The notes beneath the pieces were generated by a model. That model made no database searches. It was not told the origin of the DNA and saw only the letters and a list, made by a program, of their open reading frames with translations. A DNA stretch of 27,583 bases from an uncultured Actinomycetes bacterium (GTDB lineage Bacteria > Actinomycetota > Thermoleophilia > RBG-16-64-13), in assembly GCA_963706025.1 (NCBI GenBank), contig CAVPLM010000023.1, positions 1 through 27,583 on the forward strand. The letters are read 5' to 3'. Made by a program: the position numbers and the translations under genes. Of the stretch, positions 8,843 to 16,365 are shown one piece after another. How positions within the stretch are numbered: the stretch's first letter is position 1; each line of letters begins with the position of its first letter.

Positions 8843-9791
8843 ATGATAGTCACAACCAAGGCGCTGTTCCAGGTCGCCTACGGCAAGTTCGCCGTCGGCG
8901 CCTACAACATCAATAACATGGAGCAGACCCTGGGTCTGTTCCGGGCAACCTGGAGTCCCAGGCCCCGTTTATAATCCAGATCTCGCGTGGCGCCCGTTCC
9001 TACGCCGACAAGCGCATGCTGGAAGCCATGATCAAGGCCGCCGATGAGATCTTCCCCGACGCCGTCTTCGCCGTGCATCTCGACCACGGCGACTTGGCCA
9101 CGGCGCTCGACTGCATCGAGAGCGGGTTCTACTCCTCGGTCATGATCGACGCCTCCCACGAACCCCTGGACGAGAATATCCGCATCACCCGCGAAGTGGT
9201 CGACGCCGCCCACGCCCGCGGCATCTCGGTGGAAGCCGAGCTGGGGCAGCTCGGAGGAGTGGAGGAGCACGTGCAGGTGGACGAGAAGAACGCCCACCTC
9301 ACCGATCCGGCCGAAGCCGAGGTGTTCGTGCGGGAATCGGGGTGCGACTCCCTAGCCGTCGCCATCGGGACCAGCCACGGGGCCTACAAGTTCAGCGGCC
9401 ATCAGGGCCTGCACCTGGATGTCGCCGCCGAGATCCAGAAGCGCCTCCCCGGTTTTCCACTGGTCATGCATGGATCGAGCTCGGTGCCGCAAGAAGAGAT
9501 CGAGCGCATCAACGCCGCCGGGGGCTCCATCAAGGGAGCCAAAGGGGTGGACGAGGACGAGTTCGCCAAGGCGGTTCCACTGGGGGTGACCAAGGTCAAC
9601 ATCGATACCGATGGCCGCTTGGTCTGGACCCGGGTTCACCGGGAATTCTTCCGGGACCATCCCGAGAAGTTCGACCTGCGGGACCCCGGTAAGCTCTTCG
9701 TGGCCGAATACGCGGCCTTCATCGCTCAAAGAACCAGAAGTTGGGCTCGGCCGGCGCTCTGCCGGCGGTGCGAAAGGCGGTGACAGGATAG
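8843..9791 (+). CDS. fba: Class II fructose-1,6-bisphosphate aldolase, frameshifts near 8944 and 9729
   Basis: MIVTTKALFQVAYGKFAVGAYNINNME, VHLDHG, SVMIDAS, VEAELG, LAVAIGTSHGAYKF, LVMHGSS and KVNIDTD. Corrected tail KLGSAGALPAVRKAVTG, ending at TAG 9789-9791. Confidence 0.93.
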
Positions 9792-9850
9792 ATCTCGATC
9801 ACCGCTCCTTCGGTAAGGCGTCCTTCATCGGCCGGGGAGATAGGGATAGC

Positions 9851-11764
9851 ATGGAGACTCTGACCGGCCAGCTGTTCGCTCAGGTCGTGCAGTCGGGCGC
9901 CTACGCCGTGGCGCGAGCACAGGATGCGCTCGACCGGATCAACGTGTTCCCGGTGGCCGATGCCGACACCGGGGCCAACCTTGCCGCAACGCTGAGCGCG
10001 GCCGCGGCTGGGCTGGGACGGAATCCGCCGACGGCAGTGGGTGCCGCGGCACGCGTAGCCGCCGACGCGGCGCTGATCGGGGCGCGGGGCAATTCCGGAG
10101 CCATTTTCGCCCAGTTCCTGCATGGACTGGCGGAGGGACTGCACCTCAAGAAGGGTGTAGCCACGGGCGAGTTTGCGCTGGCCGCCATCATCGGCGTCGA
10201 TGCCGCTTATTCAGCCGTTCAGAATCCGCGCGAAGGGACCATTCTGTCGGTCCTCCGCGCCTGGGCCAGCGATATGAATGCCCAAGCCCCCGGTCTGCCG
10301 GATTTCGGCGTACTCATGGACCGCGCGCTCGAGGCGGCCCGCGTTGCTCTTGCAGCTACCCCGAGCCAACTAGAGGTACTTGCGCGGAACAAGGTGGTCG
10401 ACGCCGGCGGACAAGGCTTCGTGTACTTCCTCGAAGGCATGCTCCATCCTTTGGGAAGCCGTCTCGGTTCGGACGTGAGCATGCTGGAGTCCCTTACGTT
10501 CGCCGCCGCCTACGAGCAGCTATCCGGGATCTCGGGTGCTCACGGGGGTGGGTTCGTCGCCAGCGGCTCCGGACGGGCTCGGGGACTGGACGCGGAGGCG
10601 ATCGACGAACGGTTCCGCTACTGTACCGAAGCGTTGCTCGGAGGGGAGCGTCTCGATCGGGAGCTCATTCAGCGGGCCATCGGGAGTCTGGGCGAGTCCC
10701 TGGTGGTCGCGGGCGGCGGGACCCATATGCGAGTCCATCTCCACACGAACCAGCCTGCCTTGTTCCGGAGCGCTCTCGAGGGATTCGGGACGCTGGAAAG
10801 CTTCAAGATCGACGACATGGTGCTGCAGCAGGCTACGGCCAGGGCCGCCACTATCGCTCTCGTCACCGACTCCACCTTCGATCTTCCTGAGGCGGCGCAG
10901 CTCCGCTTTGGCACGGTGATGGTGCCGCTGACCGTGACGATCGGAGGCAGGACGTATCTCGACCGGGTTGAACTCGGCTCCAGCGACTTCTACCGTCTGG
11001 TGCGCCAGACCGGCGAATTGCCGCGCACCTCCCAGCCGAATCGCGCCGATTTCCGCCGAGTCTATGAAGCGTTGTTGAAGGACCACGAGGGCGTGGTCTC
11101 TATCCACCTCTCCAAGCGGGTGTCCGGGACCTACCAGTCTGCTCTTGGAGCGGCCGCCGACGTGGATGTGTCTCGAGTGCGGGTGGTGGATGCGCGCCAC
11201 CTCTCGGTGGGCCTGGGACTGGTGGTGGAAGCGGCCGGTGAGGCCATCCAGGGCGGTGAATCGCTCGACGGCGTGGTGGCGGCTGCGGAAGCCGCCGCCC
11301 GGAATACCAGGGTATACGGTGCCACGCCTTCGCTCGATTTCGCCGTGAAGGGTGGGCGCGTCAACTCCAAAGTGGCCTACATGGCCGGCTTGATCAGGCT
11401 GAAGCCGGTGATCCTGTTCGACGAAGAGGGAGGGGTCCACGCCAACGGCGGCCATCTCGGCTATGCGCGGACCATCCGAGGCATCGCCCGGCGGGCCGCC
11501 GAGTTCGCGAACGGCCGGCCTGCTCGGGTGGCCATAACCCACGCGGATTCGCCCGAATCCGCGGCGTACCTCCTCCAGCAGCTGCACAGACGTTTCGGAC
11601 AGCAGCAGGACATCCCCATGATGGAGTGTGGGGCGGTCCTCTCCACCCATACCGGTCTGGGAGCGGTGGCGGTCGCGGTACGCCGTCTGTCGGCCGACGC
11701 CGCGCCGAGCCGGTCTTCGCCGCCCGAGTCGCGCGAAGACGGCGAGCAACGAGGGTCCCGATGA
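9851..11764 (+). CDS. DAK2-domain / DegV fusion protein (fatty acid kinase FakA-FakB-like fusion)
   Basis: N-terminal INVFPVADADTGANL, GARGNSG, PREGTILSV, VVDAGGQG, YCTE and VHLHTN. C-terminal DegV motifs IALVTDSTFDL, PRTSQP, SGTYQSA, KGGRV, LKPVI and STHTGLG. Confidence 0.9.
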   Translation: METLTGQLFAQVVQSGAYAVARAQDALDRINVFPVADADTGANLAATLSAAAAGLGRNPPTAVGAAARVAADAALIGARGNSGAIFAQFLHGLAEGLHLKKGVATGEFALAAIIGVDAAYSAVQNPREGTILSVLRAWASDMNAQAPGLPDFGVLMDRALEAARVALAATPSQLEVLARNKVVDAGGQGFVYFLEGMLHPLGSRLGSDVSMLESLTFAAAYEQLSGISGAHGGGFVASGSGRARGLDAEAIDERFRYCTEALLGGERLDRELIQRAIGSLGESLVVAGGGTHMRVHLHTNQPALFRSALEGFGTLESFKIDDMVLQQATARAATIALVTDSTFDLPEAAQLRFGTVMVPLTVTIGGRTYLDRVELGSSDFYRLVRQTGELPRTSQPNRADFRRVYEALLKDHEGVVSIHLSKRVSGTYQSALGAAADVDVSRVRVVDARHLSVGLGLVVEAAGEAIQGGESLDGVVAAAEAAARNTRVYGATPSLDFAVKGGRVNSKVAYMAGLIRLKPVILFDEEGGVHANGGHLGYARTIRGIARRAAEFANGRPARVAITHADSPESAAYLLQQLHRRFGQQQDIPMMECGAVLSTHTGLGAVAVAVRRLSADAAPSRSSPPESREDGEQRGSR

Positions 11765-11829
11765 ACCTGCCGGTCGCGATGGAAGCCACTCTGGGCGTCC
11801 TGGTTGTCTAAACCGCGCAAGGGCTAGGA

Positions 11830-11858
11830 CGCACGACGCGTGCGATACGTGGTATTTT
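11830..11858 (+). promoter_or_regulatory. Candidate pckG promoter (extended -10) with adjacent palindrome
   Basis: TGGTATTTT at 11850-11858, 7 nt before the structured leader; CGCACG-ACG-CGTGCG inverted repeat at 11830-11844. Confidence 0.45.
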
Positions 11859-11864
11859 CTCCCC

Positions 11865-11986
11865 GGCAGACTGGCGGAGGATGGCGCGTACCCATCAGCC
11901 GCGCTGTGAGGCCGGCTGTGACACTCGGATAGAGCGTTAGCCGGCTTCGCCTATTCCTAGGCGCTAATACGACCGCTAAGGCAGAC
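11865..11986 (+). ncRNA. Candidate structured cis-regulatory leader RNA upstream of pckG
   Basis: Closing helix UGGCGG (11872-77) / CCGCUA (11973-78) encloses hairpins GAUGG/CCAUC, GAGGCCGGCU/AGCCGGCUUC and GCCUA/UAGGC. Flanked by GGCAGAC and UAAUACGA; ends 2 nt before the RBS AAGGAG. Confidence 0.55.
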
Positions 11987-11999
11987 GGAAGGAGATAGG

Positions 12000-13817
12000 A
12001 TGGCGGCCGCGATCGACGCCCTGACTAAGAACGGGGAACTGCTGGCCTGGCTGCATGACGTGGTCGAGCTGTGCAGACCAGACAACGTCTACGCCTGTGA
12101 CGGCTCGCAGGACGACTACGAGCACATGTGCGAACTGCTCGTCAAGCAGGGAACGTTCACCCGGTTGAACGACTCCCTGCGGCCCAACTGCTACCTGGCC
12201 CGTTCGCACCCCAGCGACGTCGCTCGGGTCGAGGACCGCACCTACATCTGCACCAAGAATCAGGCGGATGCCGGTCCGACCAACAACTGGGCCCCCGCGG
12301 GAGAGATGAAACGCAAGATGATCCGTCTCTTCCAGCGCACGATGGAGGGGCGGACGCTGTACATCATCCCGTTCTCCATGGGACCCATCGGCTCACCCTT
12401 CTCCAAGATAGGCATCGAGGTGACCGACTCCCCCTACGTGGTCGCCAACATGATGATCATGACCCGCACCGGCATCGAGGTCCTCGAAGCGCTGGGCGAG
12501 TGCGGCAAGTTCATCCCCTGCCTGCATTCCGTGGGAGCGCCGCTGTCCCCGTTCCAGGGTGACGTGCCCTGGCCCTGCGAGCGCGATCCCAAGCACAAGT
12601 TCATCGTGCATTTCCCCGAAGACCCTTCTATCTGGTCTTACGGGTCAGGCTACGGCGGCAACGCCTTGCTCGGCAAAAAATGCCTGGCGCTACGCATCGC
12701 CTCGACCGAGGCTCACAAGGAGGGCTGGCTGGCCGAGCACATGTTGATCCTCGCTCTCACCTCTCCCGAGGGCAAGACCCACTACATCGCCGGGGCGTTC
12801 CCGAGCGCCTGCGGCAAGACCAATCTGGCGATGATGCGGCCCACGCTCCCCGGCTGGAAAGTGACCACCGTCGGAGACGACATCGCTTGGATGCGGATCG
12901 GGGACGACGGGCGTCTGTGGGCGGTCAATCCAGAGACGGGCTTCTTCGGCGTGGCGCCGGGGACTTCCCACGACTCGAATCCCAACGCGATGGAGACGTT
13001 CACCAAGAACACCATCTTCACCAACACCGGCCTCACCGACGATGGTGACGTGTGGTGGGAGGACATGGGAGTCGAGGCCCCGGCTCACCTCATCGACTGG
13101 GAGGGCGACGACTGGACCCCGGACTCGGGCCGGAAGGCGGCTCATCCCAACTCGCGCTTCACCGCCCCCGCCTCCCAGTGCCCGGTCATCGACCCCAGGT
13201 GGCAGGACCCGGCGGGCGTACCCATATCGGCCATCCTGTTCGGGGGCCGGCGGGCGAGCACCATCCCTCTGGTGAACGAGGCTTTCGACTGGGAGCACGG
13301 CGTGTTCATGGGCTCGGCCGCCGGCTCCGAGACCACCGCCGCCAATCTGAGCAAGACCGGGGTACTGCGGCACGACCCGTTCGCCATGCTGCCGTTCTGT
13401 GGCTATAACATGGGCGACTACTTCGCCCAGTGGCTGTCCATGGCCGAGCGCACGGACCCCGCCAAGCTGCCGCGCATCTTCTTCGTCAACTGGTTCCGCA
13501 AGGGCGAGGACGGACACTGGCTATGGCCGGGATACGGCGAGAACAGCCGCGTGCTCGAGTGGATCTTCGAGCGCGTGGAAGGGCAAGGCGAAGCGGTGAA
13601 GACCCCCATCGGCAACCTGCCGACGCCCGAGGCGCTCGATCTGTCCGGCCTAGACCTGCCGGCCGACGACCTGCGCAGACTTCTAGAGGTCGACATCGAG
13701 GGCTGGAAGAAGGAAGCGGCCGGCTTGTCCGAATACTACGATGAATTCGGGGATCGTCTGCCCCAGGTTCTCTGGAAGCAACTCGAGGCCCTGCAAGACC
13801 GTCTGGGCGCGAGGTGA
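12000..13817 (+). CDS. pckG: Phosphoenolpyruvate carboxykinase (GTP)
   Basis: Intact 605 aa with [69 protein letters not shown] and [11 protein letters not shown]. Confidence 0.98.
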
Positions 13818-15121
13818 GCATGGACCCCTTGGCCGTTGAGCTCAATCAGATCATCGAACAGCAAGCTCCCGCAGTGATGCGGCTCCTCTCCGACATGGGC
13901 AAAGAACTGTACTTCCCCAAAGGGATCTTGACCCAATCGGCCGAGGCCAATCAGAAAGCCACACGTTACAACGCCACCATCGGCGAAGCCCGGGAGCTGC
14001 AGCATTCAATGGCGCTCCCGGCCATCATGCGCCATCTGGCCGACCTGGGCCCGGACGCGGTGCTGCCATACGCCCCGTCGTTCGGGCGGGCCGATCTGCG
14101 GGCTGCATGGCGAGAAGAGATCAAGGAGAAGAACCCGTCGCTAGGTGACACCCCCATCAGCCTGCCCGTGGTCACCGCCGGCATCACTCACGGGCTCAGC
14201 ACTGTGGGTGACATGTTCGCCGATCCGGGTGATCTTCTGCTGCTTCCCGACCAGTTGTGGGAGAACTACCAGCTGATCTTTGGGGTCAAGCGGAACGCGC
14301 AGGTGGCGTTCTACCCGCTGCTCGACCTCGACGAAGGTTTCGATATCGTCGGTTTCAGGCGGGTGTTGGGCGAAAACAGCGATCGCGGCAAGCTGCTTGT
14401 GCTCTTCAGCTTCCCGAACAACCCCACCGGGTATTCCATCACTCCGGCCGAAGCTGAAGCCATCCGGGGCGCGCTGGTCGAGATTGCCGAGGGTGGCTGC
14501 GACGTGGTGGCGATATGTGACGATGCCTATTTCGGTCTCTTCTACGACGAGAAGGTGATGAAGGAGTCGTTGTTCACGCGGCTTGCCTCGGCTCATCCCC
14601 GCATCCTCGCCGTGAAGCTGGACGGAGCCTCCAAGGAGGATTTCGCCTGGGGTCTCAGGGTGGCGTTCATCACCTACGGGATGGCCGGCGGAGCAGGTGC
14701 ATACGAGGCCCTGGAGAGGAAGACCGGGGGCTGCATAAGGGCGACCATCTCCAATTCCCCCAACATCTCACAGCAGTTGGTGTTGAAGGCGATGGCCGAT
14801 CCTGGCTACCGGGCGCAGAAGGAAGAGAAGTTCGCTGTTCTCCAACGCCGGGCGACCAAGGTCGGGGAAGTGCTGGCGGAGCCCCGGTTCGCAGCGGCCT
14901 GGAGGGCGTACCCCTTCAATTCCGGCTACTTCATGTGCCTGCGCCTCAACGAGCTGGACGCCGAGGCCTACCGGGTGCGACTACTGAATGAGTACGGAGT
15001 GGGTGTGATATCTCTGAACAGCACCGACATCCGTATCGCCTTCTCGTGCGTCGACGAGGTAGACATCGCGGACCTGTTCGATGTGATGCTCACCTGCGCT
15101 CTGGAGATGCAGAACGGGTAG
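13814..15121 (+). CDS. PLP-dependent class I/II aminotransferase, probable aspartate aminotransferase
   Basis: [14 protein letters not shown] and [13 protein letters not shown] (PLP Lys). GTGA start/stop overlap with pckG. Confidence 0.9.
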
Positions 15122-15194: not shown

Positions 15195-15575
15195 ATGGCA
15201 AAGACCAAGGGTCAGGTCGAAGCGGAGATCAGCGACGCCATCGTCAAGTTCGAGCTCGACTACATGGGCCGCGGGCCGGAAGAGGCCCGCACCTATATCG
15301 TCGAAGACCTCGTCATTGTCCGTCTGCGAGGCGTGCTCACCCCGGCTGAGCGCCAACTGGGAGGGGCAGACGGGACCCCCCAGGGCCGTACTCTCGTCAA
15401 GGAGATCAGACGCGAGTTGATCGAGAAGGCCAGACCTCTCCTGGAGACCATCATCAAGGACGTCACCGGGCAGGAGGTCCGCAGCTTGCATACCGACATC
15501 AGTACCATCTTCGGGGAGCGCATCATCGTGTTCTCGCTGGCGGGCCCGGTGCGCCTGACCGCCGGCAACCACTGA
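15195..15575 (+). CDS. DUF2294 / MpsC family protein
   Basis: KTKGQVEAEIS.AI.KFE..YMGRGP, IVRLRGVLTPAE, GR.LVK..R..L and SLHTDIST..GERIIVF. Confidence 0.9.
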   Translation: MAKTKGQVEAEISDAIVKFELDYMGRGPEEARTYIVEDLVIVRLRGVLTPAERQLGGADGTPQGRTLVKEIRRELIEKARPLLETIIKDVTGQEVRSLHTDISTIFGERIIVFSLAGPVRLTAGNH

Positions 15576-15615: not shown

Positions 15616-16365
15616 ATGGGCGGTGTCTTCATCCGTTTCTACGCTGAGCTCGGCGATCTGCTGCCTCCAGAGCGTCGCGGCCGCGAATTCGAGCATCCCT
15701 ACCCTTCGGGTGGTGCGGTCAAGGACCTTATCGAGGGCCTGGGGGTGCCGCACACCGAGGTCGACCTGATCCTGGTGGAAGGACGGTCTGTCGGTTTCTC
15801 TCACCCGGTCGAGGACGGCGAGCACGTGAGCGTGTACCCGGTGTTCGAGGCGCTGGACGTCGCCCCTGTGACTCGGGTGCGGGCGCGCCCGCTGCGCCGG
15901 GTCTGTTTCGCGGCCGACGTGCACCTGGGCAAGCTGGCAGGCTACCTGCGGCTGGCAGGCTTCGACACGCGATATCGCAACGACTGGTCCGACGACGAGC
16001 TCGTCGAGACCGCCGTCGGCGAGCACCGGATCATCCTGACCCGGGATCGAAGACTGCTGATGCGAGCAGCGGTGACTCATGGCTACCTCGTACGGCAGAC
16101 GTACCCCCGACGGCAGCTGCCAGAAGTACTGGAGCGGTTCGACCTGTGGGGGTCCCTCCGGCCGTTGGCGCGCTGCTCGCTGTGCAACGGCCTCGTGGAA
16201 GCGGTAGAGAAGGCCGATGTCATCGACGGGCTCCCGCCGCTCACGGTGCGCCACTACGAGGAGTTTTGGCGATGCACCGGTTGCGGCCAGCTCTACTGGA
16301 AGGGCGCGCACTATCGGTCGCTGGAGCGGCTGCTCGCCCGAGAGGCGCCTCCGGCCGACACCTAG
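15616..16365 (+). CDS. Mut7-C ubiquitin-like / PIN-fold RNase domain protein with Zn ribbon
   Basis: RFYAEL.D.L, VKDLIE.LGVPHTEVDLILV, VSVYPVFE, F.ADVHLGKLA.YLR..GFD, LTRDR.LL, RCSLCNG and CTGCGQLYWKGAH. Confidence 0.92.
   Translation: MGGVFIRFYAELGDLLPPERRGREFEHPYPSGGAVKDLIEGLGVPHTEVDLILVEGRSVGFSHPVEDGEHVSVYPVFEALDVAPVTRVRARPLRRVCFAADVHLGKLAGYLRLAGFDTRYRNDWSDDELVETAVGEHRIILTRDRRLLMRAAVTHGYLVRQTYPRRQLPEVLERFDLWGSLRPLARCSLCNGLVEAVEKADVIDGLPPLTVRHYEEFWRCTGCGQLYWKGAHYRSLERLLAREAPPADT

Follow-up and report, generated by a model that had tools for sequence, protein, structure and literature searches.

The window analysed here, a stretch of 27,583 nucleotides (nt) on contig CAVPLM010000023.1 of the uncultured Actinomycetes assembly GCA_963706025.1 (Thermoleophilia; RBG-16-64-13), carries a leader RNA of ~135 bases (positions 11865-11999, + strand) immediately upstream of pckG, which encodes a GTP-dependent phosphoenolpyruvate (PEP) carboxykinase (PEPCK). 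The leader, which begins with GGCAGACTGGCGGA/GGCAGACTGGCGG at 11865, represents a real, previously undescribed cis-regulatory RNA motif that is specific to pckG and occurs in one order of the Actinomycetota. That the RNA is real follows from its conservation across genera and from compensatory change in its paired columns, and it constitutes a conserved, structured and covariation-supported element of the 5′ untranslated region (UTR). We tentatively suggest, with a probability of about 0.45, that it is a lineage-restricted cis-regulatory RNA of the pckG-aminotransferase operon which acts as an attenuator-type conformational switch.

BLASTN comparison of the leader region against 41 related genomes recovered it in nine. 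A covariance model, R1 (115 positions), was built from nine leaders; a core model, R2, covers the leader from strand S1 to hairpin P3, both of which are described below. Of the 61 genomes in the family to which the window belongs, R1 matched 29 at E ≤ 0.001 and 34 at E ≤ 0.01, the order holding the same 61 genomes as the family, and the carriers span eight of its 19 genera. A single copy is found per genome, except in the window's own assembly (G000), where three contigs carry one locus each. All 31 stronger R1 matches, as well as the five weaker ones that were retrieved, lie directly 5′ of a pckG start. The motif is carried by 33 of the 41 pckG-bearing genomes of the order, one of the 41 (G063) being represented by a weak pckG match of 29% identity, and the eight pckG-bearing genomes without it are G019, G007, four of group g15, G072 and G063. 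In groups g15 and g5, pckG is preceded by A/T-rich DNA and not by the leader. Among the 20 genomes without a pckG match, the motif was found in G004 only. At this locus (L260, contig C55) it precedes an internally deleted pckG remnant, in which residues ~5-102 are joined to residues ~479-605, with both the leader and the aminotransferase gene being kept.

In a sample of the class drawn from other families, one of 125 genomes was matched (G155; 29.5 bits), and this was rejected as a chance match, as it lacks P2 and sits inside an open frame of 615 amino acids. In a phylum sample of 151 genomes, R2 matched G000 and a single further member of the order, and none of the 148 genomes outside the family. 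The metagenomic pckG loci (80 of 596 confirmed) yielded the motif once, in L169, with no extra diversity being gained. The linkage of the leader to pckG is thus specific and exclusive, within a single order of uncultured actinobacteria from soil and wetlands. A reading of this DNA made from its sequence alone, hereafter the sequence-only reading, had proposed a search for the terminal motifs and for their enrichment before genes for CO2 or bicarbonate. The exact pattern GGCAGACYGGCGG-N(75-105)-ACGACCGC occurs in at least 116 stretches of the genome contigs, and among the stretches listed four are real by R1 (L049, L086, L110 and L121), while the motif precedes only pckG. The remaining stretches are chance matches in G/C-rich DNA according to their R1 scores, and a further match on contig C11 of G000 (E-value: 0.57) was discarded as noise.

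The three pckG loci of G000, on contigs C23, C28 and C5, share 98% and 89% identity, and the assembly also holds three MpsC copies. Given these loci and copies and a contamination figure of 7.3%, the window's assembly is probably a bin mixing related strains or species. Across genera the leaders share 68-80% identity, which is similar to the identity of the PckG proteins, although this comparison of protein with leader is an inferred one. The pckG matches of L129, L130, L136, L144, L149, L150 and others are split over reading frames, probably through assembly indel errors rather than as pseudogenes.

The -10 and all of the sequence from GGCAGAC onwards are conserved among homologous loci and the 6-8 nt between them are variable, while the DNA 5′ of the promoter fails to align in relatives, the BLASTN alignments opening at the promoter (query positions 62-66) and continuing into pckG. 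In the window, the extended -10 (TGGTATTTT; 11850-11858, + strand), which is conserved in the homologous upstream regions, is followed by six non-conserved bases. As the -10 and the leader are conserved and the spacer and upstream DNA are not, transcription probably starts at ~11865, some 7 nt past the extended -10. The sequence-only reading, which had placed a structured leader with a promoter-proximal start here, is supported on this point. A scan for consensus -35 and -10 elements called no promoter in the leader region, which is consistent with reliance on the extended -10. An inverted repeat, ATAC-GTG-GTAT (11845-11855; strand unassigned), overlaps the -10 (GATACRTGGTAT) and represents a candidate operator. 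The sequence GATAC(G/A)TGGTAT recurs in most of the homologous promoters, including that of G019, in which the RNA structure has been lost. This promoter palindrome suggests that a separate DNA-binding regulator may act on the pckG promoter. The ATAC-N3-GTAT repeat occupies the same position in L129-L154 and L007 as in the window, and is accompanied ~25-30 nt upstream by a loosely conserved CACAC(R)G; both are kept in G019.

From its 5′ end, the leader opens with the tail GGCAGA (11865-11870), the first bases of GGCAGAC, which is unpaired in most models, followed by a G-rich strand, S1 (CUGGCGG; 11871-11877), with three mutually exclusive candidate partners. Hairpin P2 (GGAUGG...CCAUC; 11880-11896) precedes a C-rich mid strand, S2 (CCGCGCUG; 11899-11906), and hairpin P3 (11908-11948), which combines a 10-bp G/C base (AGGCCGGC/GCCGGCUU) with a bulged A and a tip that varies. 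A U-rich tract (UUCGCCUAUUCC; 11946-11957), U-richer in relatives, follows P3, as do hairpin P4 (11949-11962), which varies in length and sequence, and a C-rich 3′ strand, S3 (ACGACCGCUA, ACGACCGCTA; 11969-11978), a candidate partner of S1 or of the start-region AUGGCGG. The conserved 3′ strand, ...TAATACGACCGCTAA, finishes at 11979 in the window, ahead of the near-invariant Shine-Dalgarno (SD) sequence or ribosome binding site (RBS; GGAAGGAG, 11987-11994) and the ATG at 12000. All of these elements are assigned to the + strand. P2, P3 and P4 are the hairpins of the minimum-free-energy (MFE) fold, and the coordinates, -10, RBS, three hairpins and downstream genes were confirmed as the sequence-only reading had described them by the sequence, the MFE fold and Pfam.

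The 35 distinct leaders were aligned from their start to ATG+24 with MAFFT (alignment A5). Across them, conservation reaches at least 90% at C3, A4, G5 and A6 of the 5′ tail and at C109, C110 and G111 in S3, and C7 does not vary. The strand ACGACCGC, though distant from the core, is likewise conserved. The AU-rich UAAU that had been thought to stand out in this GC-rich DNA is not conserved; only ACGACCGC is.

Folded as a single sequence, the 135-nt leader reaches -54.1 kcal/mol compared to a shuffle mean of -48.3 kcal/mol (z: -1.46; 20/200 shuffles at least as good). The fold of the window sequence alone is therefore not beyond chance, and it is comparison that makes the RNA real. The whole R1 structure, evaluated on a model-fitted alignment that favours this structure, has 86.3% of its cells paired, with 14 pairs and 62 cells changed on both sides (0/500 shuffles), and the double changes are concentrated in distal P3 (helices 4 and 5) and P4. 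In A5, 89.5% of the cells of P2 and the P3 base are paired, with covariation attained in 3/500 shuffles. Pair 20:35 of P2 occurs as G-C in 21 leaders, A-U in seven and G-U in four, and underwent four changes between standard pairs on a pckG tree of 34 taxa, from which G004 was left out on account of its internal pckG deletion. Three leaders of group g14 (G016, G071 and G068) have lost the 5′ half of P2. The base of P3 is near-invariant (95.3% paired), with G-U at pair 51:106 in 19/35 leaders, and it is these G-U pairs that place the structure on the + strand. The mean folding energy of P3 is -23.1 kcal/mol over the 35 leaders, and at its tips the sequence changes and the hairpin is kept (mean z: -1.35; z < -1 in 21/35). 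For P4 (helix 6 of the model-fitted alignment) 71.2% of the cells are paired and three of five pairs have changed on both sides; the hairpin is missing in three leaders of genus g7 (G042, G048 and G009).

The basal strands, by contrast with the covarying tips, are near-invariant and mutually complementary, and each has a pairing potential of 79-91% with two or three different partners. Pairing of S1 with S2, which encloses P2 and is here termed H1, is possible in 85.4% of the cells, with double changes at three pairs and in 12 cells of A5 (0/500 shuffles), and is clearest in g7, with CUGCGCGG and CCGCGCAG as its strands. The sequence-only reading had instead paired S1 (UGGCGG; 11872-11877) with S3 (CCGCUA; 11973-11978) to close a multibranch fold. 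This helix, H2, can indeed form in 91.4% of the cells, its terminal pair being seen as U-G, C-G, G-C and U-A, but it is near-invariant and its covariation remains at the level of shuffles (65/500), where H1 performs better (0/500). Compensatory change can as such be upheld for P2, H1, distal P3 and P4, but not for the closing helix. The third partner of S1, UCCACCGG, is paired in 78.9% of the cells (194/500 shuffles), with a C.A mismatch in 35/35 leaders, and this register is the sole option in the three g14 leaders without the 5′ half of P2. Both bases of the mismatch (A5 columns 13 and 34; window 11875 and 11894) are invariant, and it may be speculated that an A+.C wobble would make the S1:UCCACCGG helix pH-sensitive. 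The S2 region can furthermore pair with the 5′ half of P3 (A5 columns 35-40 : 51-56; window 11895-11900 : 11910-11915, with one A.C mismatch) in 91.4% of the cells. Covarying tips together with invariant, mutually complementary basal strands would be the pattern expected if a strand serves several partners, as in attenuators.

Four conserved contexts share the trinucleotide GAC, namely those at 11869-11871 (CAGAC at the 5′ end), 11922-11924 (GUGAC/GCGAC in P3), 11971-11973 (ACGAC in the 3′ strand) and 11984-11986 (CAGAC/CGAC before the RBS), and this recurrence may represent a protein-binding word or chance.

The case for an attenuator-type switch draws on the conservation of the leader, its exclusive linkage to pckG, the pairing of the + strand RNA and the alternative partners of its strands, with the start, the use of the alternatives, the output and the effector being inferred. 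Transcription would begin ~7 nt past the extended -10, and four G/C-rich segments would pair in mutually exclusive ways. S1 would pair either with S2, closing P2, or with S3 (CCGCUA, 11973-11978), while S2 and its 5′ neighbour (11895-11898) could pair instead with the 5′ half of P3, itself predicted to form a stable G/C hairpin with the U-rich tract after it. An effector reporting gluconeogenic demand, with a small molecule and a protein being about equally likely, would shift the balance between these pairings, and the output would be premature termination or pausing at P3, or the masking of the start-region AUGGCGG by S3. The 12 nt after P3 contain on average 6.2 U (52%), compared to 13% U in the leader 5′ of P3, with at least six U in 26/35 leaders, in which P3 with its U-rich tail resembles a terminator.

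Two natural variants bear on the parts of the leader. In G019 (L007), within ~60 nt upstream of pckG, S1, P2, P3 and P4 are gone, while the promoter, ACGACCGCUAA and the RBS are kept, so that the promoter runs almost straight into ...CACGACCGCTAA, with the RBS and the ATG after it. The three g7 leaders (L152, L156 and L160, of G042, G048 and G009, respectively), which form one clade on the tree, lack P4, S3 and the ACGACCGC strand and retain S1 to P3. Their mid strand CCGCGCCAUU (CGCCAU) is complementary to the start-region AUGGCG, which is suggestive only.

Several observations weigh against a switch of this kind. The g7 variant represents one evolutionary event, and all 35 leaders derive from one order, their kinship inflating the shuffle tests. 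The S2:P3 helix, which would act as the antiterminator, is without covariation (71/500 shuffles), is broken at one pair in 12/35 leaders and has two central mismatches in G042 (A5). Likewise, pairing of S3 with the start-region AUGGCGG (columns 201-206) is possible in 88.9% of the cells without covariation (127/500 shuffles), compensations in G066 and G067 being no more than anecdotal. On the tree, S1 position 8 changes six, seven and six times among standard pairs with its three candidate partners, and because it varies alike with all three, covariation cannot pick the partner of S1. The U-tract of the window (UUCGCCUAUUCC) is weak, having 5 U in 12 nt, being interrupted and having only two U directly after the stem. 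The consensus terminator scan called nothing inside the leader; the absence of a terminator noted from the sequence alone is nevertheless doubtful, because a U-rich tract follows P3. When folding was constrained to force the H1 or H2 conformer in 33 leaders, H1 was the more stable in 27, by a mean of 5.4 kcal/mol. The SD is exposed to a similar degree in the two conformers (0.68 versus 0.71, i.e. ~70% unpaired) and exposure of the start codon differs slightly (0.47 versus 0.60). As exposure of the SD and start is near-equal between the conformers, no clear ON and OFF states emerge from the computation, and purely translational control finds no support in the predicted SD accessibility, the sequence-only reading having called the fold consistent with translational control. 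Finally, the start, a short terminated transcript and regulation in this lineage are all predictions from sequence comparison.

Downstream of the leader, pckG (12000-13817, + strand; Pfam PF00821 and PF17297; NCBIfam NF003253, Bitscore: 960) overlaps by 4 nt with a gene for a class I/II aminotransferase (13814-15121, + strand; PF00155; NCBIfam NF006388). It is followed by genes for an MpsC/DUF2294 protein (15195-15575, + strand; PF10057; E-value: 2.1e-35) and a Mut7-C RNase-domain protein with a ubiquitin-like N-terminus (15616-16365, + strand; PF01927 and PF14451). In 18 loci that were extended downstream, 14 leader-bearing and four leaderless, the aminotransferase gene comes after pckG in 17, and the Mut7-C protein is encoded in 13, the leaderless G007 and G058 included. 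An MpsC gene is located between these two in eight of the 14 leader-bearing loci, but not in the other six, among them that of G001 from the window's own genus, nor in the four leaderless loci. The aminotransferase is as such the constant partner of pckG, and MpsC and Mut7-C are optional members of the cluster. The DUF2294/MpsC gene of this lineage was seen only inside the pckG-aminotransferase-Mut7-C cluster, in the window and eight relatives.

Several other explanations of the leader need to be weighed against the attenuator-type switch. It could be a classical metabolite riboswitch, in which S1:S3 closes a four-way junction with P2, P3 and P4 and a ligand fixes the fold and thereby sets pckG translation, a reading that we consider unlikely. 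Its size, position and gene specificity are riboswitch-like, the closing helix is possible in 91.4% of the cells with the four forms of terminal pair given above, and ACGACCGC is conserved far from the core; the lack of an Rfam match would make it a new class. However, the closing helix covaries no better than shuffles do (65/500), compared to 0/500 for the competing H1, and three g7 leaders without S3 and P4 keep S1 to P3, while in three g14 leaders the 5′ half of P2 is missing. Conservation furthermore lies mainly in the stems and less in the junctions, forcing the fold leaves the predicted SD exposure unchanged, and the association with a single gene in a single order leaves no regulon from which a ligand might be deduced. 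The binding pocket would be formed by the conserved strands AG, AGCCGCG...GA and ACGA, and its ligand would not be CO2 but an amino acid, a guanine nucleotide or a metabolite from the PEP-oxaloacetate node. We would give similarly modest credence to a new class of riboswitch in which the leader, as both aptamer and platform, would set PEPCK synthesis in response to the guanine-nucleotide state or to a metabolite from the PEP-pyruvate-oxaloacetate node (e.g. PEP, oxaloacetate/aspartate or GTP/GDP). Still less probable, in our view, is a structural 5′ UTR without any switching, which would act constitutively to stabilise the pckG mRNA or to raise its translation. An unlikely reading of this type might, for example, have the U-rich tract serve as a ribosome standby or ribosomal protein S1 site and the hairpins block 5′ exonucleolytic decay. 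The SD is mostly unpaired in every model (0.68-0.71), H1/P2 and P3 form a stable ground state in 27/33 leaders, the RBS is preceded by a single-stranded, U-rich tract, and pckG is present without the leader in g15, g5 and G019, where it can be read as functioning. Hairpins of this kind would need shape only, yet the basal strands, the unpaired GGCAGAC and ACGACCGC are near-invariant across eight genera; the 5′ end, unpaired for 6 nt, would furthermore offer poor protection, and the several mutually complementary strands would be left unexplained.

It is very unlikely that conservation acts on the DNA, through operators in the initially transcribed region, or merely reflects neutral retention among close relatives. 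It is true that the carriers all come from a single order, that the -10 is overlapped by a palindrome and that the basal segments are invariant and so uninformative on pairing. However, compensatory changes are seen in P2, H1, distal P3 and P4, the G-U pairs are strand-specific, and neither the upstream DNA nor the 6-8 nt spacer shows conservation in these genomes. The identity of the leader (68-80% across genera) would be similar to that of the PckG protein. Least credible of all is the proposal of the sequence-only reading, in which the leader would either respond directly to CO2 or bicarbonate or serve as operator for the MpsC encoded in its operon, so that RNA and protein make up an autoregulatory pair. 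PEPCK does use or release CO2, PF10057 is found in the window's genome in the three pckG loci only, and MpsC accompanies 8/14 leader-bearing and 0/4 leaderless loci, although these are small numbers from related genomes. The six leader-bearing operons without MpsC nevertheless speak against MpsC as the binding partner, and PF10057 was found nowhere in the five such genomes tested (5/5; completeness 89-96%), indicating that the leader persists without any MpsC. No carbon-handling gene other than pckG is preceded by the motif, the matches in G000 being its three pckG loci, and DabA/MpsB (PF10070) gave no matches in the window's genome, which is 92% complete; a CO2 or bicarbonate regulon is as such not supported. 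The PDB sequence search with MpsC returned nothing below an E-value of 0.96, and hence no relative of solved structure by sequence. In the passages on mpsC in Fan et al. (2019; PMC6689103), its deletion in S. aureus is without phenotype, mpsC is dispensable for complementation and lies outside MpsAB function, and it is not collocated with mpsAB outside the staphylococci. The role of MpsC in the present lineage may relate to the pckG operon rather than to bicarbonate transport.

On its 5′ side, the leader is neighboured by a FakA/DegV-type fusion gene (9611-11764), a 717 amino acid open reading frame with DAK2/FakA-like and DegV (FakB-like) domains, and the window also includes a gene for a class II fructose-bisphosphate aldolase (9016-9783). 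Several relatives have a different-looking gene directly upstream of the pckG leader, the C-terminal peptide of which may belong to this class II fructose-bisphosphate aldolase. A perfect small hairpin, CGCACG-ACG-CGTGCG (11830-11844), is located just 5′ of the promoter and is shared by the closest relatives only. The terminator scan flagged an overlapping stem at 11837-11851, which may mark the end of the upstream gene's transcript.

If the leader does act as a switch, it would provide a handle on the control of gluconeogenesis in abundant, uncultured soil and wetland actinobacteria, with an RNA sensor sitting directly on the glycolysis-gluconeogenesis decision, and, with a metabolite as the effector, the known riboswitch ligands would be extended to central carbon metabolism. 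Its narrow distribution limits the general importance of the motif, while its short length, single copy and natural deletion variants make it easy to test. To our knowledge, PEPCK expression in the bacteria studied is under the control of protein regulators, and we know of no riboswitch for the PEP-pyruvate-oxaloacetate node. Full-text literature searches likewise returned no described RNA element before pck genes and no riboswitch for this node.

Comparison against the 4,227 models of Rfam 15 with cmscan gave no matches at gathering score for the whole window, none at E ≤ 10 for positions 11700-12100 and none at E ≤ 1 for 16 homologous loci. Membership of the icd-II and carA families, a resemblance to which had been suggested in the sequence-only reading, and of the ZTP (pfl) family, which it had named for comparison, is excluded by the lack of an Rfam match even at these relaxed thresholds, which also counts against the CO2 reading. 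The orphan riboswitch candidates icd-II and carA, which come from comparative genomics and which the sequence-only reading places before CO2-handling enzymes, are comparable to the leader as structured 5′ UTR elements of ~100 nt with covarying hairpins, situated before a carbon-metabolism enzyme and without a known ligand, but the leader matches no Rfam model and is limited to one order and one gene. The ZTP riboswitch (RF01750) would share with it G/C-rich conserved strands near both ends and the possibility of long-range pairing; it occurs, however, in a purine/folate gene context instead of that of pckG, and the leader has no Rfam hit at E ≤ 10. Ribosomal-protein leaders, which act in autoregulation by binding a protein that their own operon encodes, resemble the pckG leader in their strict association with one gene, single copy per genome and conserved sequence in paired regions. 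They differ in that no RNA-binding protein is invariably encoded with the pckG leader, pckG and the aminotransferase alone being constant. In classical attenuators of the trp and pyr type, segments 1:2, 2:3 and 3:4 pair alternatively, with 3:4 forming the terminator hairpin. Compared to these, the pckG leader has neither a leader peptide nor a known binding protein, the U-tract of the window is interrupted and weak, the 2:3 pairing is without covariation and imperfect in 12/35 leaders, and the conserved S3 lies downstream of the putative terminator. It nevertheless shares with them its alternative pairing segments, a G/C hairpin followed by a U-rich tract, and the conservation of the pairing strands.

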